From: Nitrospirota bacterium | GTDB taxonomy: Bacteria > Nitrospirota > Thermodesulfovibrionia > UBA6902 | Length of the DNA: 64,000 bases | Reading direction: 5' to 3' | Assembly (NCBI GenBank): GCA_016234115.1 | Contig: JACRHD010000060.1 | Coordinates: forward strand, 41,135-105,134 | In this document: positions 43,926 to 63,024 of the stretch, one piece after another | Numbering within the stretch: position 1 is the stretch's first letter | How the letters are laid out: the number at the start of each line of letters is the position of its first letter | Notes under the pieces: generated by a model | Databases searched by the model: none | Told to the model about the DNA's origin: nothing | What the model saw: the letters and a program-made list of their open reading frames with translations, nothing else | Position numbers and translations under genes: made by a program

Positions 43926-44005
43926 CGTAATAATTCAACCGGCGATAAAATCCGTCAAATAGAAAGCGTGTCCTGAGCCGCCCGGATGGCGACCCCGCTC
44001 TGCCG

Positions 44006-46654
44006 TCATGTTTTTTCCTGGGGATAAACCTCAAGTTCATCAATGTATAATTTTCCTTCAGGCGCCTCTATCCTTATATATCTGTCAAGCCGGGGCCCTT
44101 CGAAAATGACGCTCAGGGGAGCATTCGGGCTTTTTCCCTGGACAACGGCATTCACCCGCTCCCATTTCAGGCCGTCCTGCGAAAGGTGGATTTCCGGCCG
44201 GGGGCTTATTTCGCCGTACAGTACGATTGACTTAATCGCCTCTTTGTCGTTCAGATCGACAATCACGACCCTATCAAAGCCTGCTGCTCCAAGAGGAATG
44301 CCGGAGCCTTTTCCGGTATCGCCGTCAACAACATTGCTGCTGTGCCACTGCAAATAAGAAAGGCTGGGGAGCGTGTACCCGGAGGTCTGTTTGCCGTATG
44401 CAATATTTACCGGGGCCCCGGGAGGGGCGTAGGTCCACCGGTATCGCGTATGAAGATCGTCTCCGGAATATAAGCTGTTGTACCAGCGAACGGACCCTGC
44501 CGTTGCGAACATTATAACGACAAAAAAACAGATCACCCGCGAATACCCCCCAAAAGCGCGCGAACACGCGTACAGCCCGATTACAATAAAAGTCGCGCAG
44601 GTAAGCAACACCCCCCACAGAAAAGGACCGCTCCAGTACCTGAATTCTATATCGCTCCCGCCGGCGGGGACCTCAACGGCATGGGCCGCTCCGTTTGCTC
44701 TGTATACGTGCGCCCTTTCACCATTCACCCACGCGCGCCAGTGGCCCGTATAGGGATAAGAAAGGCCGAACAACGCAGGCGCCTCTGAACTTACATGGAA
44801 CCGCAGCCGGTTAAAAGAACTGTACGTCAGCTCCACCGAGCCCTGTTTCATATCTTCCGCGCCCTCTGTTAATTTCTCCGCGCTGTTCGAATCAAACTCC
44901 TCGATAAAAATTTGCTGCGGCCGTCTATTCCCCCGCATTCGGACATACGCCTCATCCTGACTTGCTACGGGTATGACCTGCGTAAATATCCTGCCGACAA
45001 AAGGCTCCATGAATGAACGTGAGAGGTGGTCCAATACCACGCGGTGCTGAGTATTGGGACAATCATGAAAACCATATCCGAGGTCCTTTTCCTTTTGGGC
45101 CTTTAACTGCTCAAAAGACGGCATATCTTTCTTCTTTTCTATCCATATCCCATATTGGAGGGTCATCCCGATCTGCAATAGCGCGGTGACGCATAGAATA
45201 ATACCCGTGACACGCGTCAATCGTGAATTTATCTTATAAAAGACGAGCGCTGAAAGCGAAAGCAGTCCAAGGAAGACGGTAGTAATTTCTATCCGGAAGG
45301 GGACATTTCTTATAACGTGGGGCAGGAAATCCCCGAATTTCGGCCTTAATAAAAATAATATCAGTAAATAAAGCGGCAGCAATATTGAAGCGGCTGTTGC
45401 AAGCAGCCTGTAGGGAGGCACTGCCAAAGACAGACCCTTTACGCGAACGGAAAATGGTTCCGCCTTCAGCATCCAGGCCAGGACCATCATTATGATCGAG
45501 GGGGCCAACAGGGAAATTCGTCCCGTGCTTCCCAGAGACGACACAAGGGGTATATACTTGTGCGACCAGACGTATACGGGAGTTCCCGGACCCTGAATAA
45601 AAAAAAGAGAATACAACAATATCCCCCACAGAAGCCATATTGCGCGGGGGATATTCACCCTGAAAAATCGCAGCAGGGGCAATAACAGGGCGATTATTAT
45701 TAATGATGAGCCGCCGAATGAACCGATCAGGTCCGCGAAAAAGGGCATAAAATAATTATTCAACGCGCCGGCCATCGTTTCAGAAGGGTCCAGACCCGGT
45801 CCGATTAAACCGGCGGATTGCGAATACGAAATATTGTTTCTGACAAATTCAAAGTAAAACGGAACAAAATATGCGGACGACAACAATATACCCGCGCCAA
45901 TGAATAATACGACCCTTGCCAGGAAAGTCGAACTGTTCATGGCGGTAAAATCCCTGTCGTGCGCCATGGCCGGAAGAATAAAGGGTATAACGAGCGTAAA
46001 TATCCCCGCCGCGATAAACCCATAAACCATCATAGGCGGGTGGCCGCTGCACGCAAGCATATACGTAACGCCCGTGATACTCAGCGGCCCGCTCCATTTC
46101 GACGGGCTGACGTAGTATCGCCCTATCATCGCGCAGAGCAAAAGATGACCAGTAAACGCCTCCAGAGACGAGCCGTAACGAAACGCCTCCAGCATGCGCA
46201 TGTTATAAACAGTTATCAGTGAAAGTACAAAAGAAAAAAGCGTATTAAGCCGTATTTGTCTCAAAAATAAAAATAACGCCAATTGAGTAAGCCCGAGGCT
46301 CAAAATACGCAGGAACGTATTCCACTCGAGCGCCTTTCCGTTCCAGTAACCGGGGAAAAGCGAAGCTACGCGGGATATCGGATGAAAAATCTGACCTAAG
46401 GTAAGCGCGCTTGTGGAATGTCCCAGATGATAACCGGGCGCGTAAAGCGGATATGAGCCGGTCTTAATGGAAAATAAAAGCTCTACCTGCTCGGTGACCG
46501 GGTGCAGGGGATAGTCTTTTGACAGGGTAAAATCAGAAACAAAAGGCGCCATCCAGAAGAGCATGAGAAAAGGAAGTACTATAATGAAACAACATAAGAA
46601 TATATTTCTCTCGGACAGTGACGCCTTTTCATCTTTATTTCCGGGTGATATCAT
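44006..46654 (-). CDS. large polytopic membrane protein, YfhO/GT-C-like, with a C-terminal beta-rich (carbohydrate-binding-like) domain
   Basis: 882 aa. The first 650 aa or so has at least 15 predicted TM helices. The soluble C-terminus ends '...RYIRIEAPEGKLYIDELEVYPQ'. Size and topology resemble YfhO/GtrC-type transferases. Confidence 0.4.
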   Translation of the reverse strand: MISPGNKDEKASLSERNIFLCCFIIVLPFLMLFWMAPFVSDFTLSKDYPLHPVTEQVELLFSIKTGSYPLYAPGYHLGHSTSALTLGQIFHPISRVASLFPGYWNGKALEWNTFLRILSLGLTQLALFLFLRQIRLNTLFSFVLSLITVYNMRMLEAFRYGSSLEAFTGHLLLCAMIGRYYVSPSKWSGPLSITGVTYMLACSGHPPMMVYGFIAAGIFTLVIPFILPAMAHDRDFTAMNSSTFLARVVLFIGAGILLSSAYFVPFYFEFVRNNISYSQSAGLIGPGLDPSETMAGALNNYFMPFFADLIGSFGGSSLIIIALLLPLLRFFRVNIPRAIWLLWGILLYSLFFIQGPGTPVYVWSHKYIPLVSSLGSTGRISLLAPSIIMMVLAWMLKAEPFSVRVKGLSLAVPPYRLLATAASILLPLYLLILFLLRPKFGDFLPHVIRNVPFRIEITTVFLGLLSLSALVFYKINSRLTRVTGIILCVTALLQIGMTLQYGIWIEKKKDMPSFEQLKAQKEKDLGYGFHDCPNTQHRVVLDHLSRSFMEPFVGRIFTQVIPVASQDEAYVRMRGNRRPQQIFIEEFDSNSAEKLTEGAEDMKQGSVELTYSSFNRLRFHVSSEAPALFGLSYPYTGHWRAWVNGERAHVYRANGAAHAVEVPAGGSDIEFRYWSGPFLWGVLLTCATFIVIGLYACSRAFGGYSRVICFFVVIMFATAGSVRWYNSLYSGDDLHTRYRWTYAPPGAPVNIAYGKQTSGYTLPSLSYLQWHSSNVVDGDTGKGSGIPLGAAGFDRVVIVDLNDKEAIKSIVLYGEISPRPEIHLSQDGLKWERVNAVVQGKSPNAPLSVIFEGPRLDRYIRIEAPEGKLYIDELEVYPQEKT

Positions 46655-46715
46655 TTTTTAAACTTCAGACTGCGCGCCTTGAACGGATCTTTCATGTTCA
46701 GGCGCTGCCGTTTCA

Positions 46716-48137
46716 TCAGATCGCTAAAATAATTATTATTACCACCAATAATACGATAGACTGACTTACCCTGTCTCTCAGGGCGAACATGATCGGATCA
46801 TCAGTCATTTCTCCCCGTCCGGTTTTCAGCCAAAGCCGGCTGATCCAGTGTAAAAGTAAAGGACATATCAACCAGAGCACCTTCGGCCTGGAATAAAGTG
46901 TCGTAACGTCCGGGCTGTTGAGATACAGGGCGACAACAATGATAGAAAGATAACCGCTTGCAATACCCATCGCATGTAAATAGTTCAGATCGGTAACGAT
47001 ATAGTCTCTTCCTTTGGCCCTTTCCCTTCCGGTCTTGTCTATGGTGACGAGCTCTGAACAGCGCTTTACCAGCGCGAGACTATAGAAAATAAAGATTGAA
47101 AATGCGATAAACCAGAAGGAGAGAGCGACATTCATGACCTCCCCGCCTGCAATGACCCGGATGGTATACAATCCGGCCAGCACCAGAACATCGATCAACA
47201 TGTAGGCCTTCAGGCGTATTGTGTACGCCAGCGTCAATATCAGATACGCCGTCAGAACGCCGAAGAACCTCCAATCGAGAATGAATGCAATCGTCAGGCC
47301 CATTAATGGAAGAAGCAGCATAATTACGCTTCCGGATATAATGGAAATATCTCCTGAAGCGAACGGCCGGTTTCTTTTTCTCGGATGATTACGGTCCGAC
47401 GGCAAATCAAAAAAGTCGTTGAACAGGTAGCCCCCCGACGCGCAAAGATTGAAGGCGGCGAAGCCCGCTAACCCTTTCATGATCATTGGCATGTTGTTCC
47501 ATTCATGCGCCGTAAAAAGAGGGACAAAGAGCAGGAGATTTTTCAGCCATTGATAGACCCTGATGGCCCTGAGATACACTATAAAACCGCCGCTCCCGCT
47601 TTTAAAGACCTTATGGACATCCGACGTCTTCCCGGCTTTTCTCAGGACGGCCCCTCCCGGATTCACAAGAATGGCCTTCCGGGCATATGGAAAGATATTC
47701 AGATCGACCCTGGAATTGCCGACATAGTCAAAACCCTTGCTGCCGTACTTCTGAAGAAATATTTCAAGTTTCCGTTTTGCGGTAATATTGACGTCCCTGT
47801 CGCTCGCCAGCACAGCGGAGAAAATTCCGAGATGGTTCGCGACACCCGTCGCCAGATTTATCGATGATCCCGTTGCCAGTATCAATTCCCGTCCCTTATG
47901 ACGCTCGCCGCGCAGGAAATCCAGGAAATCATTATTGAACGGCAACAGACCGAAGTCTATATCCACGCGCGCCGCTATCTGGTATTTCAGATAAGATTTC
48001 CCTTTCCAGAGCCAATATGGAATGATAAAAATAAAGAGGGGGTTGCGCTTCAATAAGGCATAACAGCTCTCATACAACAAATCACTTTTGATTAATGTCC
48101 CGTCAAGGTCGACAATAAGTGGTGTTGCCTGACTCAT
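46716..48137 (-). CDS. HAD-IB hydrolase fused to a UbiA-family prenyltransferase (decaprenyl-phosphate phosphoribosyltransferase-like)
   Basis: N-terminus 'LIVDLDGTLIKSD' is the HAD. C-terminal polytopic UbiA domain with the Asp-rich 'NDFFDLPSDRNHPRKRNRP' motif. Confidence 0.7.
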   Translation of the reverse strand: MSQATPLIVDLDGTLIKSDLLYESCYALLKRNPLFIFIIPYWLWKGKSYLKYQIAARVDIDFGLLPFNNDFLDFLRGERHKGRELILATGSSINLATGVANHLGIFSAVLASDRDVNITAKRKLEIFLQKYGSKGFDYVGNSRVDLNIFPYARKAILVNPGGAVLRKAGKTSDVHKVFKSGSGGFIVYLRAIRVYQWLKNLLLFVPLFTAHEWNNMPMIMKGLAGFAAFNLCASGGYLFNDFFDLPSDRNHPRKRNRPFASGDISIISGSVIMLLLPLMGLTIAFILDWRFFGVLTAYLILTLAYTIRLKAYMLIDVLVLAGLYTIRVIAGGEVMNVALSFWFIAFSIFIFYSLALVKRCSELVTIDKTGRERAKGRDYIVTDLNYLHAMGIASGYLSIIVVALYLNSPDVTTLYSRPKVLWLICPLLLHWISRLWLKTGRGEMTDDPIMFALRDRVSQSIVLLVVIIIILAI

Positions 48138-48164
48138 ATCACGTATAGCTAAGTCCTATTTCAT

Positions 48165-48893
48165 TCATGCGCCCGGTCCTGTCTGTTTGAATATCTTTTT
48201 ATAGACCCTGAACATGTCCTTAATGCTGTTGGTAATATGTCTCCTTGACATAACACTTGATTCCCCGAAGGTCCTCGGATAAGTTTGAATGCCCGCCTCT
48301 CCTATCGGGTATCCTCTCACCATTGCATTAATGATTATTTCAGCGCCGATAAATGCGCTGTTGGATATCAGCTTCATATCTTTCACGACGCTTGAGCGGA
48401 TTACTTTCAGGCCGCAATTATGATCACGTAAATGCGACTTAAATAACGTCCTGATAATGCAATTATATACGAAAGATATAAATGTCCGTAACGTGCCGTA
48501 TATTTTGGAATAACGAAACGTTACAATCAGGTCATAATGATGGAACAATTTCGACAGATGGTACAATTCGTTCACGTCATACTGGTTGTCCCCGTCGGTA
48601 AAACAGATCCATTCATACTCAAGCGAATATTTAAAGCCGGTCTGAAGCGCGGCGCCGTATCCGAGGTTCTTCTCATGATGCACTGATATGATATCGGGAT
48701 ATTTCTTTGCTAATTCATCCGCTATCGCCCCTGACCTGTCGGGGCTCGCATCGTCAACGATGATCACTTTGTAACGCGCCGCTACATCGGACAGGACCTT
48801 GAGCGACTTCATGGCGACTGTTTCAACTGTCCCCTCGTCGCGATAAACGGGGAAAAAAATCGCTATGGAAGGTTTTTCAGAAATATTATTCAA
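48165..48893 (-). CDS. GT2 glycosyltransferase (DPM1/GtrB-like catalytic domain, no C-terminal TM)
   Basis: 'IAIFFPVYRDEGTV' and 'IIVDDASPDRS' place it in the GT2 family. Confidence 0.75.
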   Translation of the reverse strand: MNNISEKPSIAIFFPVYRDEGTVETVAMKSLKVLSDVAARYKVIIVDDASPDRSGAIADELAKKYPDIISVHHEKNLGYGAALQTGFKYSLEYEWICFTDGDNQYDVNELYHLSKLFHHYDLIVTFRYSKIYGTLRTFISFVYNCIIRTLFKSHLRDHNCGLKVIRSSVVKDMKLISNSAFIGAEIIINAMVRGYPIGEAGIQTYPRTFGESSVMSRRHITNSIKDMFRVYKKIFKQTGPGA

Positions 48894-49026
48894 TTAATTT
48901 TCCCGCAAACATGTTAGAAACAGTAAGACAAGCATTTTACTATTATATACCGCTCTTGAATTACGGCCGCTGAAGCCTGCACATAATCCATATTCTGAAT
49001 GTTGACTGCGTCTGGTAAGGGACCGG

Positions 49027-50484
49027 CTAATGACTGAGCTGGTTCTTTGCTTCAAAATATTTTCTTTTTATAAATAGTGTTGATAAAAGACCATACATGC
49101 CCTTAGCCATAATTATGATAAACCTGGCCCCGGTCATTCGCTTCAGGTAAGACAGTATGATTCGCGGCCTGAAATAAAATCTTCTGTAGGTGGACTGATT
49201 AATCCTGATGAGCTCTTCACGGGTAAAGCCCTCGGCCACAAAAGTCGCGTTCAGCGTCGTCATCGCGTCCCAATCCTCTGCGAAGGTCCCAAACCGGTGT
49301 ATGTCCCTGTACGCGGGAGAGCCCGGGTAAGGAGTAAAAATGGTGAAAGCCATATCGTCCAGGGGAAGCTCCAGAGCAAGGTCGATGGTCTTTTTAAGGG
49401 TTTCATGCGTCTCCCGGGGCATCCCCATCATGAAATAGCCCTTCATGCCGATGCCGGCCTTCTTTGTCATTTCCGTCGTCTTATAGACCTGCTCCAGTTT
49501 GATCGATTTCAATAATGAATCGAGTATTGCCTGATCACCGCTTTCAATTCCGTAGCATATTTGCCAACACCCCGCTTGCTTCATCAGCTCGAGCATCTCG
49601 GGCGTAACACCGGTGACGCGAGAGAGACAACTCCAGGTCAGGTCGATTTTTTCATCTATCAGCCTTTGACAAAACGCCATCACGCGCTTTCGATTGACGG
49701 TAAAGGTGTCATCGTTGATCTGAAATTCCTTGATGCCGTATTTCTTCGTCAACAAATAAATATATTCGAATAAATAATCGAGGGAATATTGACGGATTAC
49801 CCTCCCATGAATCTCGTTTGTACAAAAAGTACATTGTCCGGGACACCCGCGGGTCGTCATGACGGTAACGGCGGGCGTGCGCTTGACGCTGAAATACGGC
49901 GGTATATATGAGGATTTCAAATCCGGGAACAAATCAACGGCCGGCAGAGGCAGCCAATCAAGGTCTTTAATAAGCTCTCGCCGTTGGGAAAGAGAGACCT
50001 CATTGCCTTTTTTCCAGATCAAACCGTTTATTTCAGCAAACCGGTCTTTTGAGGGGTTGGAAAGATGCAATAATTCAAGCATGGTAATTTCACCCTCTCC
50101 GATTACGCCGACGTCAAATTCCGAATATCGCTTTATGGTGGCCTCAGGCGCGCATGAAATATGCGGGCCCCCTATTACAGTGAGCACGCCCGGCAGAGTT
50201 CGCTTTGCTATCCCGGCGACCCTGGCGGCATCGGAAATCGCAATAGTCGGCGCCGTCAAGCCGACAATTCTGGGCCTGCAGTCGTCAAGGTATTTGCCCA
50301 GTTCATCATCGTTGAGGTCCGTGACTCCCATGTCGAGAATCCTGACCTTAAAACCGTCACGTCTCGCCACGGCAGCAATGCAGGCCAGCCCCGTCTGGAA
50401 AGATTTGCCCCCGCATATTGCGAAATGGCCATATCGTTTTGTCATGCTCAGTGGTGGATCGATCAGAAGAAGGTCGATAGACAT
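49027..50484 (-). CDS. B12-binding radical SAM protein
   Basis: N-terminal B12 domain (LLLIDPP...) plus the cluster motif 'TTRGCPGQCTFCTNE'. Confidence 0.8.
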   Translation of the reverse strand: MSIDLLLIDPPLSMTKRYGHFAICGGKSFQTGLACIAAVARRDGFKVRILDMGVTDLNDDELGKYLDDCRPRIVGLTAPTIAISDAARVAGIAKRTLPGVLTVIGGPHISCAPEATIKRYSEFDVGVIGEGEITMLELLHLSNPSKDRFAEINGLIWKKGNEVSLSQRRELIKDLDWLPLPAVDLFPDLKSSYIPPYFSVKRTPAVTVMTTRGCPGQCTFCTNEIHGRVIRQYSLDYLFEYIYLLTKKYGIKEFQINDDTFTVNRKRVMAFCQRLIDEKIDLTWSCLSRVTGVTPEMLELMKQAGCWQICYGIESGDQAILDSLLKSIKLEQVYKTTEMTKKAGIGMKGYFMMGMPRETHETLKKTIDLALELPLDDMAFTIFTPYPGSPAYRDIHRFGTFAEDWDAMTTLNATFVAEGFTREELIRINQSTYRRFYFRPRIILSYLKRMTGARFIIIMAKGMYGLLSTLFIKRKYFEAKNQLSH

Positions 50485-50656
50485 AGTTGTAGCATCCTTT
50501 TTACTGTTTTAGTGTGTGTAATATTTTAATATATACATTGTTTTTAAAGCAAAGTTTCATATTACCTGTGTCATATTACCTGTAATATGATTACACTCTG
50601 AAAAAAACATGAGATTGATCGACATGCCGGCATTTGATCAATAAACATGTCCCGGT

Positions 50657-52381
50657 TTATTTTTTTTCAATCCAGTAGTTGTTAAGAACAAGAACATCAA
50701 GCCCATTAGTAAAAAAACAGGCAATAGCGTCTCTCGGCCTGGCAATCATCGGCTGGCCCCTGAGGTTAAAAGAGGTATTCATCACTACAGGATGACCTGT
50801 AAGGGATTTTAGTTCATTCAGCATCTCCCAGTACCTGGGATTGGCCTCTCTTTCAACGGTCTGCGGTCTTACACTATTGTCGACATGAACGACTGAAGGA
50901 ACCAAGTCTTTCATCCCGGGCCTGGCCTGATAAGCGACAATCATGAACTCGGCGTCTTCGGCGTCTTCAAGATAGTCCTGCTTGTGCTCCGTCATAAGTG
51001 ACGGGCAAAAAGGCCTCCACGGCTCGCGGAATTTGACCCTTATATTGACCTTGTCTTTCATCTCGGGATCACACGGATTTGCAAGTATCGACCGGTGTCC
51101 CAGGGCCCGGGCGCCGAATTCCAGCGCGCCGTCGAAGTGGGCGACGATTTTACCTTCACTGATCGCTTCGGCAATCTTTCTCGCCATATTGTCCGGACTG
51201 GAATATTTTACCCCGGCAATTTCAAGTTCCTTCCTGATTTCCTCATCAGTCGAAGAAGGGCCGTAATAAACATTTTTCAATTTATGGGGCCTCCATTCCC
51301 CGAGTTTGTGAGACAGCGCTATTGCGGCCCCCAGCGCGGACCCGGCGTCACTCGACGCGGGTTGTGCGAAAATTTTATCAACATAGGGCGAATGCCTGAT
51401 GACCCCGTTCATCTTACAGTTCAGGCCGACCCCGCCGGCTACGCACACATTTCTGATCTTTCCGTTGCCGGTCGCCGTCCTGACTATATTCAGCACGGCT
51501 TTTTCGAGGGTGTCCTGGACAGTAAAGGCAATATCTTTAATTTTTTGATTCAACGGCTCCCCGTAATATCTCGGGGGACCAAAGAGCGCTGCGAGTTTAT
51601 CCGAGTAATGCTTGCCCGCGTCGTGAGTCCCCAATAACAGATACGAAGGGTCTATTTCGTAACCGTCGGAAGATATCCTGATTACCTTTGCTATTTTTTC
51701 TTCCCATTCGGCGACCCTGTTGCCGTAAGGGGCGAGACCCATTACCTTGCCTTCGTCGCGATACGGAACAAATCCCAGGTAATCGGTCATTCCAGCATAG
51801 AACCAGCCGAGAGAATGCGGGATGTCGATTGATTTGATTAATCTGTAATTGCCGCCTTTTGCATGCCATACGCTTGTGCTCAAGTGCTCGCCGGAGCCGT
51901 CGATAATTATAACGGCCGCTTCGTCAAACCCGGACAACAAATAGGTTGAAGCGACGTGTGATTCATGGTGCTCGATAAACTCGATCCTCGGTATCTTTCC
52001 TTTCAGTCCCACCCGCCTCAAACCTTCCCTGGTCTTTGCCGTGATCGTGCCGGGTAGATAATCTAAAATCTGGTATACCCCCTCACGGACGCCCCCGTCA
52101 CTCTTGCCCGATAAGCCGTATTTTAAAAACTGTTTTCCGAAAAATAACGGCATCCTGATTCTATAAGCCGTGCTGTCCCAGCCCCACGCAATATAATCGA
52201 TATCGTCCAGCGTGAGTTTTGCTTTTTCCAGACACCACCTGGCAGCCATACCGGGGAACATGAAATGGGCCCCCTTGAAGTTGATCATGCGCTCTTCTTC
52301 AACGAAGCCCACGAGTTGACCGTCAACTACCAGAGCGGCAGCCGGGTTATATCCGAAACCTAACAACCCCAGTATCTTCAA
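50657..52381 (-). CDS. carbamoyltransferase (NodU/CmcH family)
   Basis: 'MKILGLLGFGYNPAAALVVDGQLVGFVEEER' is the N-terminal Kae1/YgjD-like domain. A C-terminal carbamoyltransferase domain follows. 574 aa. Confidence 0.8.
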   Translation of the reverse strand: MKILGLLGFGYNPAAALVVDGQLVGFVEEERMINFKGAHFMFPGMAARWCLEKAKLTLDDIDYIAWGWDSTAYRIRMPLFFGKQFLKYGLSGKSDGGVREGVYQILDYLPGTITAKTREGLRRVGLKGKIPRIEFIEHHESHVASTYLLSGFDEAAVIIIDGSGEHLSTSVWHAKGGNYRLIKSIDIPHSLGWFYAGMTDYLGFVPYRDEGKVMGLAPYGNRVAEWEEKIAKVIRISSDGYEIDPSYLLLGTHDAGKHYSDKLAALFGPPRYYGEPLNQKIKDIAFTVQDTLEKAVLNIVRTATGNGKIRNVCVAGGVGLNCKMNGVIRHSPYVDKIFAQPASSDAGSALGAAIALSHKLGEWRPHKLKNVYYGPSSTDEEIRKELEIAGVKYSSPDNMARKIAEAISEGKIVAHFDGALEFGARALGHRSILANPCDPEMKDKVNIRVKFREPWRPFCPSLMTEHKQDYLEDAEDAEFMIVAYQARPGMKDLVPSVVHVDNSVRPQTVEREANPRYWEMLNELKSLTGHPVVMNTSFNLRGQPMIARPRDAIACFFTNGLDVLVLNNYWIEKK

Positions 52382-52469
52382 ATTATTTCTCCTTCATCCG
52401 TCCAGTCTTATATTAGCACATTATTTTTTAACGTATCAAAAACCGGCAAAGGCATCGACCTTGGGCCGG

Positions 52470-53249
52470 CTATCTCTTGTGCATATCATATATTTCCGAC
52501 ATATAGCAGAATCTGTAACCCTTCCTGACGACGCCCTCCAGAAAGTTCATGCACAAATCAATCCCGCTATATTTGTTCCGGCTGTAGATGAGCTTCCAGA
52601 TAAGGGGCAGTTTGTCAAAAGATTTTTCGTTGATAATGAAATCATGTAAATGTGAGCCGAAACATGCGACCTCGGGGAGGGAGAGTCTATTATAAAAATC
52701 AAGCCCCAGCAATTTGATATATGAAATTGAAAGAGTAAGCCTGAAAGGAGGCAGCGATGTAAAGGGGATCTCCATGATTCCGGAATTATCATAGTAATGA
52801 ATATTTTTGTTTCTGAGAAGATATTTAAACGGATTGGGGAAATAGGACGGGATTAAACTCGAGTCATAAGAAAAGCCGTGCCTTTCAAGCGCTTTTATCC
52901 CTGAATCGGAAATCTTGCCGCGGGGAGCGCGATACCCTCTGGGCTGCCTTTTGAAATAATCAAGATAAACCGCCTTTGCCCTCGCGATTTCATCCTCTGA
53001 ATCCGGGACGTCAAAATTATGAGAGTAACTGTGCGGTTCAATTTCACAAGCATATTTTTCAAACAATTTAACGACGTTCGGAAATAATTCAAATATTTCG
53101 CCCACGGTAAATACCGTCATCTTTACATCAAGAGAACTCAATGCCGACAATATCTCTTCTACCTTGCCCAGGTCTTTGAAAATTTCATATCCGCCCACCA
53201 CTCCGGCGTAATCAGCCTCAAGGTCCATGGTAAACGAGAAAAGTTTCAA
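52470..53249 (-). CDS. polysaccharide deacetylase (CE4; ArnD-like)
   Basis: 'FTMDLEADY' and 'HSYSHNF' are CE4 motifs. Confidence 0.75.
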   Translation of the reverse strand: MKLFSFTMDLEADYAGVVGGYEIFKDLGKVEEILSALSSLDVKMTVFTVGEIFELFPNVVKLFEKYACEIEPHSYSHNFDVPDSEDEIARAKAVYLDYFKRQPRGYRAPRGKISDSGIKALERHGFSYDSSLIPSYFPNPFKYLLRNKNIHYYDNSGIMEIPFTSLPPFRLTLSISYIKLLGLDFYNRLSLPEVACFGSHLHDFIINEKSFDKLPLIWKLIYSRNKYSGIDLCMNFLEGVVRKGYRFCYMSEIYDMHKR

Positions 53250-53570
53250 ACCCTACCCTCCCGCAGTTCGCGCGGGCCCATTTGTTTCGGATTTGCTCCG
53301 GGACGAGACGGACCCATGGACCAGCGGCATTCTCTGTCGACTTTATGGACAGGATCAATATTGTTCATCACCGGGCAATCCCCTGTTTTTCTCACGGCCG
53401 ACGATCGGTTCCTTTGAAGGACTCATAGACAATATTACGTAATGTTTTATTATATCCTTTAATTCGCCGGTATATAAAGCCGGGGACGTTTTTCCATCCG
53501 GCATTTATTCAAAGCAGGAACCTATGACCCCCTTATTAATACAAACGCAAAATGTATAGTTACATTTTAA

Positions 53571-53668
53571 AAAATCTCCCATGACCCCTGCTTAAGGCGC
53601 CTACTGTCGGTCTTTTCCAAAGAGGGGATTAGTCTCCCCCTTTGAAAAAGGGATGAAGGGGGATTTTA
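53571..53668. repeat. composite intergenic repeat, reverse orientation (element A 53571-53632, element B 53633-53668)
   Basis: Reverse complements match the 7434-7492 and 16761-16798 copies. Confidence 0.75.
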
Positions 53669-53677
53669 TAACTTTAC

Positions 53678-55204
53678 TTATTGCGTTTGTATTAGTATTT
53701 CATAAATACCGAATGTCCTCTCCAGCGCATAGTTAGTCGAAATGTAATTATCAAGCAAATCTATTTTCGTGTCGATGCTGCTGAGATTAGGCTCATGCCG
53801 CAAGCGGGCGGCCAGAACAACAAGCCGGGGGGGACTTGCTTCAAATTCCCTGATCACTTCCTCCTGTACCTCTGCTGAAGTATGGACCCCCGGATTAAGC
53901 ACATGGTATCTTGAAGCGCAGTTCCTCTGCGCAAGAAAGTAAATTATTACGTCGTTGAAAACAAACTGATCGTGATTTGTCACTCCGACATATATTTTGT
54001 CGTCTTTTACGGTGTTGCTCTTTATGTATAATACGGCATCCCTGAGGTCCGAATCTATTACTGAATATCTCGCCCTCTCAATGTCGGGATTGACGGCCTC
54101 CACAACGTAACCGTTCGTGCGAGACAGGAGCATCATGATGACACTGACCGGTTTGGACAAGGTAATGCCGAAGACAACGACAAACAGCATATAGACCAAT
54201 CTGTTATAACCCGCGCTCAGCGACAGTCCTCTCGTCAATATATGGAGTAAAAGCGGGGCCAGTAAAATGCCGCTCAGCGCAACCGGAAGCAGGTGTACGA
54301 CGTCCGACCTGGTCCTTGCCTGATTAAAACAGAATATGCCGATGAGGGAGATAATAAGCAACGAATATGCCGTTGCATCATCTCTTTTGCGTTTTATCAT
54401 GCCGACAGACATAACAGCGCCCGTCACAAGGACTGACGGAAATATAAAGAAAGGAAGGTTCCACCTTGAAAAAGAAGGATAAGGAAGCGCCTGTTTCTCA
54501 AGAAAAGCTAACGGGATAAGGACCAGATCGTTAAACAATTCCCCTGCAGCAGAGTTCATGACAAAATAGACCAGCACAGGCAGCCCTGTCATGAGTCCGC
54601 CTGATATGAATGTGATCGGCGCAGCCCATGAACGTCTCTCAATTATGCTTCTGATTATCAGTACAATAGAAATCGCGATAGAAGCGTATCCTCCCAGATC
54701 ATGCCGAAACAGGACGGCGCAGGCGATAGAGACCGCGCTCAGGATTACATAGTAATTCTTTTGCTCCATCATATACCGCGTCAGCAAATAAACGCTTACA
54801 AATATAAACAGCATGGCGGGATACACCGGGTACGCGGGGAAACTGCTGTGCTGCAGCCAGACAAGCGACATAATCCAGCCTGGCAGCGCAATCTTCTCCG
54901 AAGCTATGAGGTTGATAATAAGAAAAATAGTCATCGAAAGGAGCGCCTTTATCACAAGGTCATATACTCTTTCAGTGAAGACCGATACCCCGAAGACTTT
55001 AAAGAGAGCGGCCAGGGCATAAAGCTGTCCCACCGGGTATTCCGAGGAAAAATCCTTATGCGGGACCTGTCCCTCCAATATCCTCTCCGCCCCGACCAGT
55101 ATTACCGCTTCATCATATGGGGCCAGGGGCAAATTGATTACGGGGAGATAATAAATGATGGCAATAACAAACAGAATTGCCGGGAACAGATATTTTTTGC
55201 GCAT
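53678..55204 (-). CDS. GT-C fold membrane glycosyltransferase (ArnT-like)
   Basis: Polytopic, about 510 aa, with an N-terminal 'LAPYDEAV' loop region typical of ArnT/PMT. The start could be at 55249 in the longer ORF. Confidence 0.5.
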   Translation of the reverse strand: MRKKYLFPAILFVIAIIYYLPVINLPLAPYDEAVILVGAERILEGQVPHKDFSSEYPVGQLYALAALFKVFGVSVFTERVYDLVIKALLSMTIFLIINLIASEKIALPGWIMSLVWLQHSSFPAYPVYPAMLFIFVSVYLLTRYMMEQKNYYVILSAVSIACAVLFRHDLGGYASIAISIVLIIRSIIERRSWAAPITFISGGLMTGLPVLVYFVMNSAAGELFNDLVLIPLAFLEKQALPYPSFSRWNLPFFIFPSVLVTGAVMSVGMIKRKRDDATAYSLLIISLIGIFCFNQARTRSDVVHLLPVALSGILLAPLLLHILTRGLSLSAGYNRLVYMLFVVVFGITLSKPVSVIMMLLSRTNGYVVEAVNPDIERARYSVIDSDLRDAVLYIKSNTVKDDKIYVGVTNHDQFVFNDVIIYFLAQRNCASRYHVLNPGVHTSAEVQEEVIREFEASPPRLVVLAARLRHEPNLSSIDTKIDLLDNYISTNYALERTFGIYEILIQTQ

Positions 55205-55211
55205 ATTGCGT

Positions 55212-56321
55212 TTAATCAATATCGTCCAGAATCTCCTGCAGCGCGGCAATGACTATTCCCTGTTCTTCATCGGAGAAGGAAGGATACATCGGCAAATTGA
55301 AGATCTCACCGGCGGCCTTTTCCGTATGGGGCAGGTCTCCCGTCCGGTAGCCCAGATACCTGTAACCCGTCATGGAATGAATGGGCCACGGATAGTTTAT
55401 GTTGACGAAAATATCTTTTGATTGAAGCCGGGACATGATCCCGTCCCTCCGGGGATGACGACAAACGTACAAATGATAAACATGCTCATTGCCCGGCATG
55501 GTCTCAGGCAGAGAGAGGCTTGTCATTGCTAAAGATTGATCATATTTATGCGCAATTTCTCTTCTGCGCGCAATATATTCATCGAGGTGAGACAACTTGC
55601 GCAAAAGGATTTCAGCGTGCAGTTCATCAAGCCGTGAATTATAGCCGCTTTCTTCCGAATAATACGTTTTCTCCATGCCGTAGAAGCGAAGGCGTCGCAT
55701 TTTGCTGTAGAGATTTTCATCGTTTGTCAATATCATGCCGCCGTCGCCGAAGCCGCCCAACACCTTGGTAGGGTAAAATGAAAAAGCGGCAAGGTCCGAC
55801 ATGGAGCCCGCCTTAATGCCGTTGAACGACGCCCCGTGACACTGGGCGCAATCTTCAATAACTCTTAAACCGTGGGCGCGGGCGATATCATTCACGCCTT
55901 TCATATCGACGCATTGGCCGTAGAGATGGACCGGCAGGATGCATTTTGTATTCTCCGTAATTGCCTTCTCAATCAAAGAAGTGTCCATAAGGTATGTCTC
56001 GGGGTCGATGTCGACAAAGACAGGCCTGGCCCCTGCTGCGACAATAGCTGAAACAGTCGGGACCGCCGTATTTGCGACCGTGATTACCTCATCGCCGGCG
56101 CCTATTCCCAGGGCCTTAAGACCGAGAAAGAGCGCGTCCGTGCCGCTGTTGACTCCCACGCCGAAATTCACTCCGCAGTACGCGGCAAAAGCTTCTTCAA
56201 AATTCTTTACGCTGTCTCCCAGGATCAGGCGCCCTGAACTCAACACCTTCTCGATAGCAGCGTGAATCTCTTCCTTTTCTTTCTCGTATTCCCTGAGATA
56301 GTCCCACACTCTTATGGTCAT
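55212..56321 (-). CDS. DegT/DnrJ/EryC1/StrS-family PLP sugar aminotransferase (ArnB-like)
   Basis: 'NSGTDALFLGLKAL', 'YGQCVDMKGV' and 'FSFYPTKVLG' match the fold type I sugar aminotransferase. Confidence 0.85.
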   Translation of the reverse strand: MTIRVWDYLREYEKEKEEIHAAIEKVLSSGRLILGDSVKNFEEAFAAYCGVNFGVGVNSGTDALFLGLKALGIGAGDEVITVANTAVPTVSAIVAAGARPVFVDIDPETYLMDTSLIEKAITENTKCILPVHLYGQCVDMKGVNDIARAHGLRVIEDCAQCHGASFNGIKAGSMSDLAAFSFYPTKVLGGFGDGGMILTNDENLYSKMRRLRFYGMEKTYYSEESGYNSRLDELHAEILLRKLSHLDEYIARRREIAHKYDQSLAMTSLSLPETMPGNEHVYHLYVCRHPRRDGIMSRLQSKDIFVNINYPWPIHSMTGYRYLGYRTGDLPHTEKAAGEIFNLPMYPSFSDEEQGIVIAALQEILDDID

Positions 56322-56429
56322 TTTCTTCTCACATGAAACAGTTTAAATGCGGTTAGTTGTTGCCCCGAATCTTTCATGGCCCCGGTCAAATCGTAATTTA
56401 TTTAAAAAATATCTTATGAAGCCCGGATT

Positions 56430-57446
56430 TCAATAGTCCCAGTAGTGGCTGCCGTACTTCCTGTAATATTCCAGAGAAGCGGCCAGTCCGTCTTCAATTG
56501 ATGTCCCGGGCTCCCATCCCAGCAGCGACCGGATTTTTCCGTAGTCTCCGTAATAATCCCCTATATCTATCTGCTTCCGTTCAGGCGGGAAAGGAACAAT
56601 GGAATACGACCCGGCCTTGTTGATTTTTATCAGCAGGGCCGCCAGGTCCTTCAGATTAATATGGTCATTGCAACCCGTATTGAAAATCTGACCATACGCT
56701 TCCTCTCTTATCGCCGACATCAAAAAGGCATCTACGATGTCCTCTACAAAATTAAAGTCGCGTAATTGTCTTCCATCGCCGAACACCTTGATTTCTTCCC
56801 CGGAGATAAGCTGCTTTATCCAGATACCCAGAAAAGTCTGTCTGGCGTCCTTCACGCGCATGCGCGGACCATAGGTGTTGGTCAAACGCAGTGAACAGGA
56901 CCTGATCCCATAAACATTATTGTAAAGGATGTGATACCATTCCCCGGCCATTTTGTTTATACCGTTGACGTCCGTAGGATGAAGCAAATGACGCTCGTCA
57001 ACAGGCAGGTAATCGGGCACTCCATACATTTGCCGGGTGCTGGCAAAGACAATTTTTATGGAAGGATTATAGTGGCGGCATGTCTCTAATATGGACAACT
57101 GCGCCCGGCAATTGATCTCCAGGTCCGTGTAAGGATCGACCATCGAGTCGGCATGGGCCGTCTGTCCCGCTAAATTGAACAGATAGTCTTTCCCCTTTAT
57201 AAGATATCGCATGCTGTATATGTCCCTTACATCGGCTATATTTACTTCAACCTCTTTTTCAATGTCCCTGATATTAAATAAATTGCCCCCGTATTCCGGA
57301 ATAAGCGAATCCACTAATAAAACCTGGGCGCCGTACTCAACCAGGCGGTGGGCCAGGTTTGAACCTATAAAACCCAGTCCGCCGGTAATAATGACCTTCT
57401 TGTTCCTGAATTTCTCAAGTCCCGTTGCTTTATTCATGAGCCTCAT
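56430..57446 (-). CDS. NAD-dependent epimerase/dehydratase (UDP-glucuronate decarboxylase / ArnA C-terminal-domain-like)
   Basis: 'VIITGGLGFIGSNL' and the 'YxxxK' motif mark an extended SDR. It is embedded in Arn-like gene context. Confidence 0.75.
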   Translation of the reverse strand: MRLMNKATGLEKFRNKKVIITGGLGFIGSNLAHRLVEYGAQVLLVDSLIPEYGGNLFNIRDIEKEVEVNIADVRDIYSMRYLIKGKDYLFNLAGQTAHADSMVDPYTDLEINCRAQLSILETCRHYNPSIKIVFASTRQMYGVPDYLPVDERHLLHPTDVNGINKMAGEWYHILYNNVYGIRSCSLRLTNTYGPRMRVKDARQTFLGIWIKQLISGEEIKVFGDGRQLRDFNFVEDIVDAFLMSAIREEAYGQIFNTGCNDHINLKDLAALLIKINKAGSYSIVPFPPERKQIDIGDYYGDYGKIRSLLGWEPGTSIEDGLAASLEYYRKYGSHYWDY

Positions 57447-58380
57447 ATGCTTTTCTGATCGTATATTGGGGCTTTTTATTGAGAGACAGAAAAATCCTTC
57501 CGATATATTCTCCGACCATTCCGAGCATTACCAACTGTATTCCGCCGAAAATGGAGATTGAAACAAAGAGGCTCGCGAAACCTACCGGGATATCGGGACT
57601 CAGGAGTTTTTCAATAGCAGTATAAATGCCCAACAGCAATCCGACGGAAGCAAATATAAGACCCAGGAAAATGGAAATCCTCAACGGCAGGACGGAAAAA
57701 TTTGTAAACATATTCAGCCACAGCGAAACCAGTTTTTTGATCGTATAGCCTGAGCGCCCCTCCCGCCGCTCGCCATGCTCCACCCTCACCGTCCCGATCT
57801 TGTCGGTAGTCTGTAATACTAATCCGTCTATGTACGGAAAGGGGGCCTGATACTTGATGATTTCCCTTACGAGGAATTTATTCAGGACCTTGAAACTCGA
57901 AAGGTACAGACCGGCCGGTTTATGCAGCATAAGGCCCGCGACCTTGTTATGAAACCAGCTCCCCCAGTTCCTGAACAGCGAATGTTTCTTCTTGTCATAA
58001 TATGAGTAAACCACGTCATACTCGCCGTCTAACGCCTTATCGACAAGTTTAACGACCTCGCTTATCGGGTTCTGAAAATCATCATCCATGATGACGACAT
58101 AGTCCCCCGTGACCTTATTTAATCCGGCCATCACCCCATTATGTTCTCCGACGTTTTTTGATAATGAATAAAACCGTACTGTCTCTCTGTATTTTTCAAA
58201 CAGGGCGACGCACGCCTCTTCCGAACGGTCGGCCGAATTGTCGTTTACGAGCACAACTTCGAGCTTGTAAAGAGGCCCCAAATCCCTGATAAGTCCTTCA
58301 ACCAGGCTCCCGATAGTATTTTCAGAGTTGTAGACCGGAATTAAAATGGATAATGCAATTGAGGGGTCTTTTTTGTTCAT
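57430..58380 (-). CDS. GT2 polyprenyl-phosphate amino-sugar transferase (ArnC-like)
   Basis: 'LSILIPVYNSE', 'VVLVNDNSADRS' and 'DDDFQNP' are GT2 motifs. Two C-terminal TM helices are present. 316 aa. Confidence 0.8.
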   Translation of the reverse strand: MNKKDPSIALSILIPVYNSENTIGSLVEGLIRDLGPLYKLEVVLVNDNSADRSEEACVALFEKYRETVRFYSLSKNVGEHNGVMAGLNKVTGDYVVIMDDDFQNPISEVVKLVDKALDGEYDVVYSYYDKKKHSLFRNWGSWFHNKVAGLMLHKPAGLYLSSFKVLNKFLVREIIKYQAPFPYIDGLVLQTTDKIGTVRVEHGERREGRSGYTIKKLVSLWLNMFTNFSVLPLRISIFLGLIFASVGLLLGIYTAIEKLLSPDIPVGFASLFVSISIFGGIQLVMLGMVGEYIGRIFLSLNKKPQYTIRKAYEAHE

Positions 58381-58580
58381 TAATCCGGTTTCGATAAGAT
58401 ATTCTCAATTCATCAAAAAATCTGAACCATCTCTGTTCTGCAAACAGGTCTCTTAATGATTTCGTCTCAACGACGTCATACCATTTGTTTCTTTGAAGAA
58501 ATCTTCTACGGATTTAATGTCTTAAATACAATTCAATAACTTATAAAGTATAGCAAATAACACAAAGTAAAAAATAGGTA

Positions 58581-58725
58581 TTCCCTGTAACCCTCAGTTA
58601 CGAGTTATAACACACCCCTGCGCCCCTCTCAAGAGGGGAATAAAGACAAGTCCCCTCCTGGGAGGGGTAAGGGGTGGTTTTCTTTCCGGCACACATATCC
58701 ACCACGTAACTGAAGGGGTCACGTA
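58581..58725. repeat. IR-flanked element C, reverse orientation
   Basis: Reverse complement of 7546-7640, including cccctctcaagagggg and cccctcctgggagggg. Flanked by ccctcagttacg / cgtaactgaagggg. Confidence 0.75.
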
Positions 58726-58802
58726 GCGGAATGACTTATATTTCCTAAAATATTATAATAAGAAAAGTTTATTTTCTATCATCCGGTGAAAAATAGCTGA
58801 TA

Positions 58803-60251: not shown

Positions 60252-60260
60252 CACAACAAG

Positions 60261-62322: not shown

Positions 62323-62333
62323 AATAAGGAGCC

Positions 62334-62894
62334 TTGATTTTGAATAAATATGGCATTCCATACGTACGAATTTTTGAGCCTGCGGTCATCATTAATATCG
62401 AAAACATAGAGTTCGGCAAGTACGTCATGATCGACAGTTTCGTCCTTATCCAGGCCAAAAGGAAGATTAAAATAGGGGACCATGTTCATATCCCCTCTTT
62501 TTCATCAATCACGGGAGGCGGCAAGCTTGTAATGGAGGATTATTCCGGTTTGTCCTCAGGGGTAAGGATATTTACGGGGAGCGATGACTTTAAAGATTGG
62601 GGGTTCGGTAACCCGACTATAGATGAAAGGTTCAGGAATGTCAAAATCGGCGAGGTGATCATCAGGAAATTTGCTATCGTCGGGGCCAACAGTGTGGTGC
62701 TCCCGGATGTTGAAATCGGGGAAGGGGCTGCTGTCGGCGCGGGCTCTGTGGTGACTAAAAACCTGGAGCCGTGGGGGATATATATCGGGAACAGGAAAAT
62801 CGGAGAGCGTAACAGGAAAGACGTGCTGAAGAACTTTGAAAACTTTCTGACGACCAGCGAACCGGAAAGGACAGGGCCATTTTTCAGACAATAA
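62334..62894 (+). CDS. left-handed beta-helix (hexapeptide-repeat) sugar N-acetyltransferase
   Basis: Hexapeptide repeats 'IGDHVHI...VRIFTG...VKIGEVIIRKFAIVGANSVVLPDVEIGEGAAVGAGSVV'. Probable TTG start (62334 or 62340) after aaggag. Confidence 0.65.
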   Translation: MILNKYGIPYVRIFEPAVIINIENIEFGKYVMIDSFVLIQAKRKIKIGDHVHIPSFSSITGGGKLVMEDYSGLSSGVRIFTGSDDFKDWGFGNPTIDERFRNVKIGEVIIRKFAIVGANSVVLPDVEIGEGAAVGAGSVVTKNLEPWGIYIGNRKIGERNRKDVLKNFENFLTTSEPERTGPFFRQ

Positions 62895-62995: not shown

Positions 62996-63024
62996 AGGTT
63001 ATACAATGATTTGAGCATCGCAAC

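Follow-up and report, generated by a model that had tools for sequence, protein, structure and literature searches.

Putative separable polyprenyl-phosphate-dependent glycosylation modules in a surface-glycan island of an uncultured Nitrospirota bacterium

We analysed a 64-kb stretch of a metagenome-assembled genome (MAG) of an uncultured member of the Nitrospirae (contig JACRHD010000060.1; hereafter the window, to whose 64 kb the negative results "in the window" refer), and in particular a run of ten minus-strand genes between positions 44006 and 58380. A first-pass annotation, made from the sequence alone, had taken these genes for one expanded version of the Arn pathway, which modifies lipid A with 4-amino-4-deoxy-L-arabinose (Ara4N). 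The reading that we favour, with a probability of about 0.55, is that the region holds no single pathway but a stack of glycosylation modules, separable from one another, dependent on polyprenyl phosphate and extracytoplasmic, inside a surface-glycan island. Module A (58380-53678) most likely adds an amino sugar to a surface glycan, and module B (48137-44006) most likely adds ribofuranose side chains.

All ten open reading frames (ORFs) were recovered, and the domain calls made for them in the first-pass annotation held up. Domain identities, folds, catalytic motifs and gene-neighbourhood patterns were observed directly, using Pfam and NCBIfam profile scores (in bits, against the cut-off of each model), matches to solved structures in the PDB and transmembrane (TM) helices called by hydropathy. 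Orthologues of the region's genes, with 60-93% amino-acid identity, were seen in at least five other metagenome contigs, so that the arrangement is not due to chance. The relative loci compared were L001, L002/L003, L090, L091, L092 and L094; conservation of the tailoring genes was assessed in six relative loci. The genes of the two modules, and a short gene lying before module B, are as follows.

57430..58380, minus strand: module A, gene 1; family 2 glycosyltransferase (GT2) of 316 amino acids (aa), a polyprenyl-phosphate sugar synthase of the ArnC/GtrB/PgfS class (Glycos_transf_2, 92.5 bits)
56430..57446, minus strand: module A, gene 2; short-chain dehydrogenase/reductase (SDR) of the extended type, overlapping the GT2 gene by 17 nt
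55212..56321, minus strand: module A, gene 3; pyridoxal-phosphate-dependent sugar aminotransferase of the DegT family (Pfam DegT, 384 bits)
53678..55204, minus strand: module A, gene 4; 508-aa glycosyltransferase of the GT-C class (GT-C_A fold), with about ten TM helices and a C-terminal soluble domain
48165..48893, minus strand: short soluble GT2 of 242 aa with no TM helices (Glycos_transf_2, 76 bits)
46716..48137, minus strand: module B, gene 1; fusion of a HAD (PRP, phosphoribose-phosphatase) domain and a UbiA domain (NF006088, 609 bits, cut-off 351)
44006..46654, minus strand: module B, gene 2; 882-aa YfhO-family GT-C with about ten TM helices, a periplasmic alpha/beta domain, two TM helices and a C-terminal domain of the carbohydrate-binding module (CBM) family CBM32/F-type lectin

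The layout of these genes in the relatives spoke against one linear pathway. In L001, the short GT2, the HAD-UbiA fusion and an 870-aa GT-C formed a trio on the strand opposite the GT2-SDR-DegT-GT-C quartet, and in L090 and L091 the HAD-UbiA/GT-C pair lay near a quartet of the other orientation (of which L091 shows just the GT2 and a portion of the SDR). As a cassette by itself, the trio (short GT2, HAD-UbiA, YfhO/CBM32 GT-C) occurred in L002/L003 (9207-16354) among unrelated or regulatory genes. A gene for an rve-family transposase lies some 800 bp away, separated from the cassette by one ORF of 241 aa; this setting suggests that the cassette can move as a unit. L092 has no HAD-UbiA; there, a GT-C of the 882-aa type (54% identity) comes after the Arn-like quartet, on its strand. 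The quartet itself was kept as a block at 60-87% identity in L001, L090 and L092 and, as far as its GT2 and part of its SDR go, in L091.

The HAD-UbiA fusion is predicted to be a polyprenyl-phosphoribofuranose synthase (PPPRS), a phosphoribosyltransferase of the Rv3806c type. It scored 114-148 bits against the NCBIfam models of decaprenylphosphoryl-5-phosphoribose (DPPR) synthase, versus at most 55 bits against aromatic prenyltransferase models, and its only solved relatives were two entries, 8j8j (E = 2e-25) and 8j8k, both of the Mycobacterium tuberculosis DPPR synthase Rv3806c. The resemblance to the mycobacterial enzyme pointed out in the first-pass annotation is thus borne out, and a polyprenyl-phosphate-linked pentose is expected; the name DprA that it gave for Rv3806c needs correcting, as this protein is UbiA, or DPPRS. 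The motif positions DLDGT (10-14), NDFFDLPSD (240-248, N240-D241-x2-D244-x3-D248) and RCSE (359-362, R359-x2-E362) were invariant in 13 homologues. The residues of the fusion were collinear, at a constant offset of 7, with the published positions N247, D248, D251, D255, R366 and E369 of ORF15 from Citrobacter youngae (PMC11127046). ORF15, which has the same HAD(PRP)-UbiA fusion, was shown biochemically to make polyprenyl-phosphate-ribofuranose from phosphoribosyl pyrophosphate (PRPP); the small flippase ORF14 and the GT-C ORF12, which carries a C-terminal CBM, add alpha-ribofuranose side chains to the O antigen, ORF12 being the founding member of family GT136, and optional epimerases yield xylofuranose or arabinofuranose (Kelly et al., PNAS 2024, PMC11127046).

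We then described the neighbourhoods of HAD-UbiA genes elsewhere (one genome per species; 80 loci kept, with counts over 74 loci). A DprE1-like FAD enzyme followed HAD-UbiA in 43 of the 74 loci and a DprE2-like SDR in 31, while small transporters of the GtrA or EamA type were present in 14. A large polytopic protein was encoded within 8 kb in 43 of the 74 loci and started less than 500 bp downstream in 13; these polytopic neighbours were diverse, and none was similar in sequence to the 882-aa protein. Relatives of the fusion at 57-58% identity sat within Wzm/Wzt O-antigen-type clusters, and the exopolysaccharide locus of a Vibrio alfacsensis plasmid exhibited the canonical layout, with an EamA transporter directly after HAD-UbiA.

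Other genes were also observed in these neighbourhoods. MprF-type proteins of about 320 aa, consisting of the LPG_synthase_TM domain only, were seen in L021, L084, L090 and eight other HAD-UbiA loci; they were encoded directly upstream of HAD-UbiA in 9 of the 74 loci and adjoined YfhO-like GT-Cs in L084 and L090, and none was present in the window. They may be the flippases of such systems. Homologues (25-29% identity) of the amine-oxidase-family flavoprotein encoded at 30277-31626 of the window were found by tblastn in 16 of 83 loci, at up to about 7 kb from HAD-UbiA, and in 14 of 74 by clustering (including L008, L018, L026, L029 and L082), mostly 4-7 kb downstream and often beside a GtrA-family protein. 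In the window, the flavoprotein gene is about 15 kb from HAD-UbiA; a functional link to the polyprenyl-phosphate-ribose route is possible.

The 882-aa GT-C matched the YfhO family (PF09586) with 33.6 bits (cut-off 28.5), over profile positions 739-835 only, and NCBI names its homologues "YfhO family protein". Its best full-length structural matches were the pentofuranosyl transferases AftD and Emb (EmbB/C). The description in the first-pass annotation of a YfhO-like polytopic protein with a C-terminal extracytoplasmic domain was therefore sound, the protein being a GT-C whose terminal domain is a CBM32/F-lectin sugar-binding domain. Its gene starts 61 nt downstream of HAD-UbiA, and a HAD-UbiA gene (72-76% identity among close relatives) was found immediately upstream of the GT-C in all five close contigs, namely the window, L001, L002/L003, L090 and L091.

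To place this pair in its wider family, we scanned metagenomes with an alignment of the 882-aa family (61 loci), taking proteins with at least 60% identity as the subclade of the window. No HAD-UbiA gene was present in any locus outside this subclade. In the wider family, a GtrB-like GT2 homologous to that encoded at 31697-32680 of the window was found within about 2.3 kb of the GT-C in at least 14 loci, usually in the slot just upstream and often with a methyltransferase. In the subclade of the window, this donor-synthase slot, directly before the GT-C, is in every case occupied by HAD-UbiA, which we read as a donor-synthase swap. The window itself contains, at 31697-33419, the GtrB-like GT2 (two TM helices) and a methyltransferase gene, divergent from a 529-aa PMT_2 GT-C (33569-35158); homologues of this GT2 lying beside YfhO/CBM32 GT-Cs elsewhere were 29-47% identical. 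In L092 and L094, which have no HAD-UbiA, the short GT2 (82-84% identical) was paired with a methyltransferase.

From these patterns we infer the substrates, the pairing of donor synthases with GT-Cs and the acceptor. In module B, the UbiA domain would move ribose-5-phosphate from PRPP to polyprenyl phosphate, and the fused HAD domain would then remove the 5-phosphate, giving polyprenyl-phosphate-ribofuranose. A tblastn search of the window with a DprE1-like neighbour gave no homologue, and a DprE2-like neighbour gave only a marginal 31-bit match inside an unrelated SDR; since neither DprE1/DprE2 nor an SDR epimerase is linked, ribofuranose is the expected sugar. There was no convincing GtrA, EamA or LPG_synthase_TM homologue in the window by tblastn, and a hydropathy screen of all its ORFs of 70-200 aa for a small multi-TM flippase returned only one spurious antisense ORF, so that the flippase must be encoded elsewhere. 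Once the lipid-linked ribofuranose has been flipped by that protein, the 882-aa GT-C would add it as a side chain to an acceptor glycan held by the CBM32/F-lectin domain.

The known system closest to this scheme in our comparison is the three-component pentofuranose system of C. youngae O1/O2 (ORF15, ORF14 and ORF12; PMC11127046). Both have the same fusion with collinear catalytic residues, a GT-C encoded in the window directly downstream and ending, like ORF12, in a beta-rich carbohydrate-binding module, and a surface-glycan locus; in the window, which lacks an epimerase, ribofuranose is expected, as in serotype O1. They differ in that the GT-C of the window is an 882-aa YfhO-family protein with CBM32, the locus lacks a linked small four-TM (EmrE/ArnE-like) flippase, the synthase has an additional soluble GT2 ahead of it, the host belongs to the Nitrospirota, and neither Wzm/Wzt nor Wzx/Wzy genes can be seen. 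Membership of the GT-C in GT136 is unlikely, because Pfam places it in YfhO and it is not similar to the polytopic neighbours of HAD-UbiA in the 74 other loci.

Module B also has features of two other types of system. As in the mycobacterial decaprenyl-phosphate-arabinose pathway (Rv3806c, Rv3807c, DprE1/DprE2, Emb/Aft) and in pilin arabinosylation of Pseudomonas aeruginosa, the route would begin with an Rv3806c-type phosphoribosyltransferase; the structural matches of the GT-C to AftD and EmbB/C and the DprE1- and DprE2-like genes following most HAD-UbiA homologues elsewhere are further points of likeness. In contrast to that pathway, the phosphatase is a fused HAD domain and not Rv3807c, ribose rather than arabinose is expected, and the window has a single transferase and not a polymerising set. 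The CsbB/GtcA/YfhO, GtrA/GtrB/GtrV and PgfS/PgfE/PgfM systems share with the window a YfhO-family GT-C near a GT2 polyprenyl-phosphate sugar synthase: in distant members of the 882-aa family a GtrB-like GT2 has been kept beside the GT-C, and the GT2 of module A scored almost equally on PgfS and ArnC. However, the window has no GtcA/GtrA, only the C-terminal part of the YfhO profile was matched, the GT-C carries CBM32, and the adjoining donor-synthase slot holds a PRPP-dependent UbiA enzyme. The short GT2 of the window lies two genes upstream of the GT-C and co-occurs with it in four relatives, but it has no TM helices and is not of the usual adjacent type.

Module A corresponds to the part of the region that most resembles the Arn pathway (ArnA, ArnB, ArnC, ArnD, ArnT, ArnE/F), with amino-sugar formation by an SDR and a DegT enzyme, loading by a GT2 with two TM helices, an ArnT-like GT-C_A protein and a deacetylase nearby. 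The comparison with Arn proteins, domain by domain, did not support the first-pass claim of an Arn gene set, as no equivalog cut-off was reached (ArnC 153 bits versus 529, ArnB 223 versus 631, ArnA 47 versus 777). The GT2 (57430-58380) has two C-terminal TM helices (233-251 and 268-286) and scored 147 bits against PgfS (cut-off 500); its orthologues, 75-80% identical, were found in the same block in L001, L090, L091 and L092. The 508-aa GT-C, whose start was confirmed by an identical 508-aa database protein (P0229), scored 19 bits against PMT_2 (cut-off 26.1). Its AlphaFold 2 model (pLDDT 91) matched STT3 (1e-7), ArnT 5f15 (1.6e-6, TM-score 0.52), PglB, AglB, AftA and Pmt4 in Foldseek. Thus, of the ArnC- and ArnT-like character claimed for these two proteins, the two-TM architecture and the ArnT-like fold stand, but the sequence scores fall below the cut-offs. 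Among 46 homologues of the GT-C, E32 after the first TM helix was invariant and D31 was at least 90% conserved; orthologues (60-68% identical) were encoded downstream of DegT in L001, L090 and L092.

The SDR was distinguished by the absence of the usual catalytic tyrosine. It has the motifs N161-x3-K165, with Asn replacing the catalytic Tyr, and S-T-R-Q-x-Y-G; in a residue-level alignment, S-T-R-Q stood at the acid positions of dehydratases and decarboxylases. Its best solved relative was the Thermotoga GalE 4zrm (147 bits), the catalytic Tyr of which aligned with the Asn, and the nearest solved relatives were 4-epimerases, ranking before decarboxylases and dehydratases. In an alignment of 108 sequences (the SDR of the window and 107 cluster representatives from a library of 1.8 billion proteins), Asn was present at the Tyr position in 89 and R138 in 105, so that the substitution is not a sequencing quirk. 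The protein belongs to a sizeable, conserved subfamily of extended SDRs characterised by NxxxK and S/G-T-R-Q-x-Y-G. An ArnA/UXS-type enzyme would have TSE and YxxxK; this SDR is not a UDP-glucuronic acid (UDP-GlcA) decarboxylase. The subfamily (homologues P0314-P0463) includes fusion proteins, in which the SDR is joined to DegT, to another SDR of the canonical kind or to a methyltransferase. The SDR-DegT fusions (P0345, P0443, P0381 and P0362) show that the SDR and the aminotransferase act together, though not as ArnA and ArnB do. We found no characterised member of the subfamily, a literature search on Tyr-less extended SDRs gave nothing useful, and NCBIfam scans of the tandem SDR-SDR and SDR-DegT fusion proteins gave no informative match on the identity of the SDR.

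The aminotransferase, proposed earlier as ArnB, was closer to other enzymes. Its PDB matches were 7b0d (382 bits; a literature search on this entry gave nothing useful), QdtB (311), DesV (300) and WbpE (270), with ArnB (178) at about the 20th rank; those with known function, QdtB, DesV and WbpE, are C-3 aminotransferases. Orthologues were 78-84% identical. The missed Arn models, the SDR motifs and the C-3-like DegT enzyme imply that the sugar is not Ara4N, and the amino group is more likely to be at C-3 than at C-4, as judged from these sequence relationships. In module A, the Asn-variant SDR would turn a nucleotide sugar into a keto sugar, from which DegT would form an amino sugar; the membrane-anchored GT2 would load it onto polyprenyl phosphate and, after flipping across the membrane, the 508-aa GT-C would transfer it to a periplasmic acceptor. 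Beyond the scores and enzyme types, the window differs from Arn in having no formyltransferase and no ArnE/F (no small ORF with three or four TM helices), and its deacetylase is not conserved with the block.

Module A and the genes downstream of it are separated by a gap of 428 bp (53250-53677) after the 508-aa GT-C, which holds a structured element and a promoter-like site.

53525..53705, minus strand: structured element at the 3' end of the 508-aa GT-C gene, in which an inner G+C hairpin is flanked by the two 29-nt arms of an inverted repeat (53534-53562 and 53669-53697)

The arms are 86% complementary, and the arm sequence is unique in the window. The 181-nt RNA of the element had a minimum free energy of -61.4 kcal/mol (z = -5.45), and none of 200 shuffled sequences folded as well. 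The promoter-like site (53478-53449, TTTATA-18-TATAAT) matched at 10 of 12 positions. An Rfam scan of 43000-59500 gave no match, and no remnant was found in the gap of the gene (383-433 aa) that relatives have after the GT-C. The element is probably a terminator or a processing boundary, although it could alternatively be a rearrangement scar. Together with the promoter-like site, it makes at least two transcription units likely; the ten genes are co-directional, as first noted, but the term operon calls for a caveat.

The remaining genes of the run are those of putative accessory enzymes.

52470..53249, minus strand: family 4 carbohydrate esterase (CE4) of the polysaccharide deacetylase type (Polysacc_deac_1, 44 bits)
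50657..52381, minus strand: carbamoyltransferase of the NodU/CmcH/TobZ family (Carbam_trans_N, 170 bits, and Carbam_trans_C, 216 bits, both far over the cut-offs)
49027..50484, minus strand: class B (cobalamin-binding, B12) radical S-adenosylmethionine (radical-SAM) enzyme (B12-binding, 74 bits, and Radical_SAM, 75 bits, above the cut-offs)

Together with the short GT2, these enzymes would have tailoring or donor-supply roles, and their placement differed between the relatives. The CE4 protein has an intact H-S-Y-S-H (HxxxH) metal motif and no TM helix. It gave weak PgdA-type matches only in the PDB, had no ArnD match in NCBIfam or the PDB, and had no counterpart in the six relative loci compared (including L001, L090, L091 and L092). 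Its proposed equivalence to ArnD was rejected for want of both an ArnD match and conservation with the block.

The solved relatives of the carbamoyltransferase were TobZ (338 bits), NovN (270), GdmN (269) and one unnamed carbamoyltransferase. We take TobZ, NovN and GdmN to act as O-carbamoyltransferases, and the enzyme of the window, with the same two-domain (Kae1/YrdC-like) architecture, is most likely an O-carbamoyltransferase as well. Unlike the TobZ/NodU/CmcH enzymes, it is encoded in a glycan island beside a B12 radical-SAM gene. The relatives have only paralogues, 28-38% identical and usually accompanied by SxtJ, a B12 radical-SAM enzyme and a GT-C-like gene. A recurrent block of carbamoyltransferase, SxtJ-family small protein, 474-aa B12 radical-SAM enzyme and 545-548-aa GT-C-like protein was observed in L001 (16343-21422) and L091 (14640-20070), whereas L094 (5-1529) showed only the first two; no SxtJ was found in the window. 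The carbamoyltransferase/B12 radical-SAM pairing seen at 52381-49027 thus recurs across paralogues, which suggests that the two enzymes act on one substrate. The earlier idea that carbamoylation replaces formylation was not sustained, given these relatives and the fact that the gene is not a conserved partner of the aminotransferase block.

The B12 radical-SAM enzyme at 49027-50484 has its CxxxCxxC motif as CPGQCTFC and is probably a methyltransferase; its best NCBIfam model was HpnJ (202 bits, far under the cut-off), and no equivalog was reached. An orthologue (73% identity over 119 aa) lies downstream of module A at the cut left end of L001, the one relative showing this gene with module A. 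It had been called the second such enzyme, correctly, since another copy, 31% identical, is encoded at 42516-43925. The catalytic domain of the short GT2 is predicted to be of the polyprenyl-phosphate sugar synthase class, like ArnC, dolichyl-phosphate mannose synthase (DPMS) and PpgS: ArnC aligned over residues 8-218 (48 bits), the DPMS entry 5mlz scored 33 bits, and NCBIfam models of PpgS and of dolichyl-phosphate-hexose transferases scored 40-44 bits. Its orthologues were 82-93% identical in L001, L002/L003, L092 and L094.

This last enzyme is the basis of another reading of module B, which we consider less likely but which keeps considerable weight. The 882-aa GT-C would use a polyprenyl-phosphate-linked hexose or N-acetylhexosamine made by the short GT2, perhaps de-N-acetylated by CE4, as in CsbB/YfhO of Bacillus, PpgS/Rv3779 of mycobacteria and LgmABC of Bordetella, and the ribose donor would then serve another GT-C, either the 508-aa protein or the PMT_2 protein of 529 aa (33569-35158), or undergo epimerisation by enzymes whose genes lie elsewhere. 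YfhO is reportedly the GT-C of GT2-dependent three-component systems, and the short GT2 aligns with synthases of the appropriate type. Distant members of the 882-aa family do adjoin GT2 rather than HAD-UbiA genes; however, that GT2 is the membrane-anchored, GtrB-like one, and it is HAD-UbiA that lies immediately before the GT-C in all five close contigs. Likewise, the short GT2 accompanies the GT-C in four relatives, two of them without HAD-UbiA, but the HAD-UbiA/GT-C pair of L091 has no short GT2 within 10 kb, L002/L003 has no second GT-C within 10 kb that could use the ribose donor, and CE4 is absent from the close relatives compared. It is hardly credible, on the other hand, that HAD-UbiA is an aromatic or quinone-type prenyltransferase unrelated to glycans, lying next to the GT-C incidentally. 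NDxxDxxxD is a motif generally shared across the UbiA superfamily, and the database labels agree with such a function (NCBI, "UbiA family prenyltransferase"; JGI, for homologues, "4-hydroxybenzoate polyprenyltransferase"). We rejected it on the basis of the profile scores, the Rv3806c entries as sole solved relatives, the neighbourhoods with DprE1-like and DprE2-like genes, GtrA/EamA transporters and polytopic proteins, and the biochemistry of ORF15, in which the same architecture makes polyprenyl-phosphate-ribofuranose (PMC11127046).

We regard as quite improbable the model of the first-pass annotation, in which the ten genes together constitute a single, expanded Arn-type pathway to a polyprenyl-phosphate-linked amino-pentose, with N-carbamoylation taking the place of N-formylation and with C-methylation and periplasmic transfer as the later steps. 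Its general logic, with sugars loaded on polyprenyl phosphate and transferred by GT-Cs outside the cytoplasm, holds. The broad families do match ArnC, the C-terminal part of ArnA, ArnB, ArnT and ArnD, yet every Arn model was far under its cut-off, neither the decarboxylase residues nor the catalytic Tyr are present in the SDR, and the DegT enzyme is nearer to C-3 aminotransferases. As that annotation stated, there is no N-formyltransferase (no Formyl_trans domain in the large window ORFs scanned, that is, most ORFs of at least 150 aa), but the named solved relatives of the carbamoyltransferase are O-carbamoyltransferases, its gene is not conserved beside the aminotransferase block, and CE4 is missing from the close relatives. 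The gene families share contigs in several MAGs, although with the modules on opposite strands or alone, and the co-directional run is split by a structured boundary with a promoter-like site. Moreover, PRPP-derived ribose and a nucleotide amino sugar are chemically separate entries to the lipid carrier.

Several observations weigh against our reading of separable modules. Modules A and B co-occur, with ten apparent contigs in common between the hit lists of the 508-aa and 882-aa GT-C families; they probably decorate the same envelope glycan, and may thus be less independent than the word separable suggests. The ribofuranose donor proposed for the 882-aa GT-C is a candidate one: the wider family pairs with GtrB-like GT2 enzymes, the GT-C occurs in L092 and L094 with the short GT2 and without HAD-UbiA, and in the stand-alone cassette one GT-C is thus accompanied by two possible donor synthases. 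The canonical three-component system has a flippase, whereas the window encodes none, and epimerases may be encoded outside the examined 64 kb of the MAG. In module A, the Asn-variant SDR lacks the usual general base for making the keto substrate of the aminotransferase.

A more elaborate joint reading is doubtful, and we offer it as speculation. A YfhO-family GT-C, ancestrally using GtrB-made polyprenyl-phosphate-hexose, would have been re-partnered with PPPRS in a Nitrospirota/Omnitrophota subclade, giving an undescribed, mobile and flippase-less pentofuranose cassette of short GT2, PPPRS and GT-C/CBM32, the ribose of which would perhaps be O-carbamoylated and/or C-methylated before transfer. 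Module A would then be a formyl-independent analogue of Arn that feeds a free, non-acylated amino sugar by way of the Asn-for-Tyr SDR.

The surrounding island spans at least about 43 kb, starting near 20-21 kb of the window, and the only polytopic proteins encoded within it are three GT-Cs, HAD-UbiA and a membrane-bound O-acyltransferase (MBOAT). Besides the MBOAT, unusual tailoring genes in its 21688-43925 part encode the E2 and a fused E1 of a 2-oxoacid dehydrogenase, a GMC oxidoreductase, a class III aminotransferase, the amine-oxidase-like flavoprotein, a PseB/CapD-type dehydratase, an FkbH-like protein, a MaoC dehydratase, a GNAT protein and the other B12 radical-SAM enzyme. On the plus strand, a divergent run (58803-63963) encodes an NDP-hexose 2,3-dehydratase (537 bits), a GFO/IDH/MocA oxidoreductase, a second DegT aminotransferase, a hexapeptide acetyltransferase and a GT2, and looks like a route to a 3-acetamido-2,3,6-trideoxyhexose. 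Such trideoxyhexose chemistry is better known from actinomycete antibiotics than from Gram-negative surface glycans. Unrelated housekeeping genes occupy the left end of the window (503-10097). They encode subunits of a cbb3-type cytochrome oxidase (CcoN, and a FixO/CcoO protein bearing additional cytochrome c domains), a FixG-like ferredoxin and a P-type ATPase for heavy metals, and after them a 3-deoxy-D-arabino-heptulosonate 7-phosphate synthase, a rubrerythrin, a lipid kinase and BioB. The modules aside, the region is ordinary, a surface-glycan island of mosaic make-up in an uncultured bacterium.

These findings guard against a misannotation, in that "Arn-like" gene sets in environmental genomes need not mean Ara4N or a polymyxin-type modification of lipid A. 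An uncharacterised group of enzymes that deserves biochemical study is the Asn-for-Tyr SDR subfamily, which some genomes have as fusions to aminotransferases. For the route from PRPP to polyprenyl-phosphate-ribofuranose side chains, the prototype is one biochemically characterised case, with a GT136 transferase (Kelly et al. 2024). If the pairing that we propose for module B is true, the range of this route would come to include deep-branching environmental phyla and another GT-C family, unrelated to the first (YfhO with CBM32), and donor synthases would be swappable in front of a GT-C.

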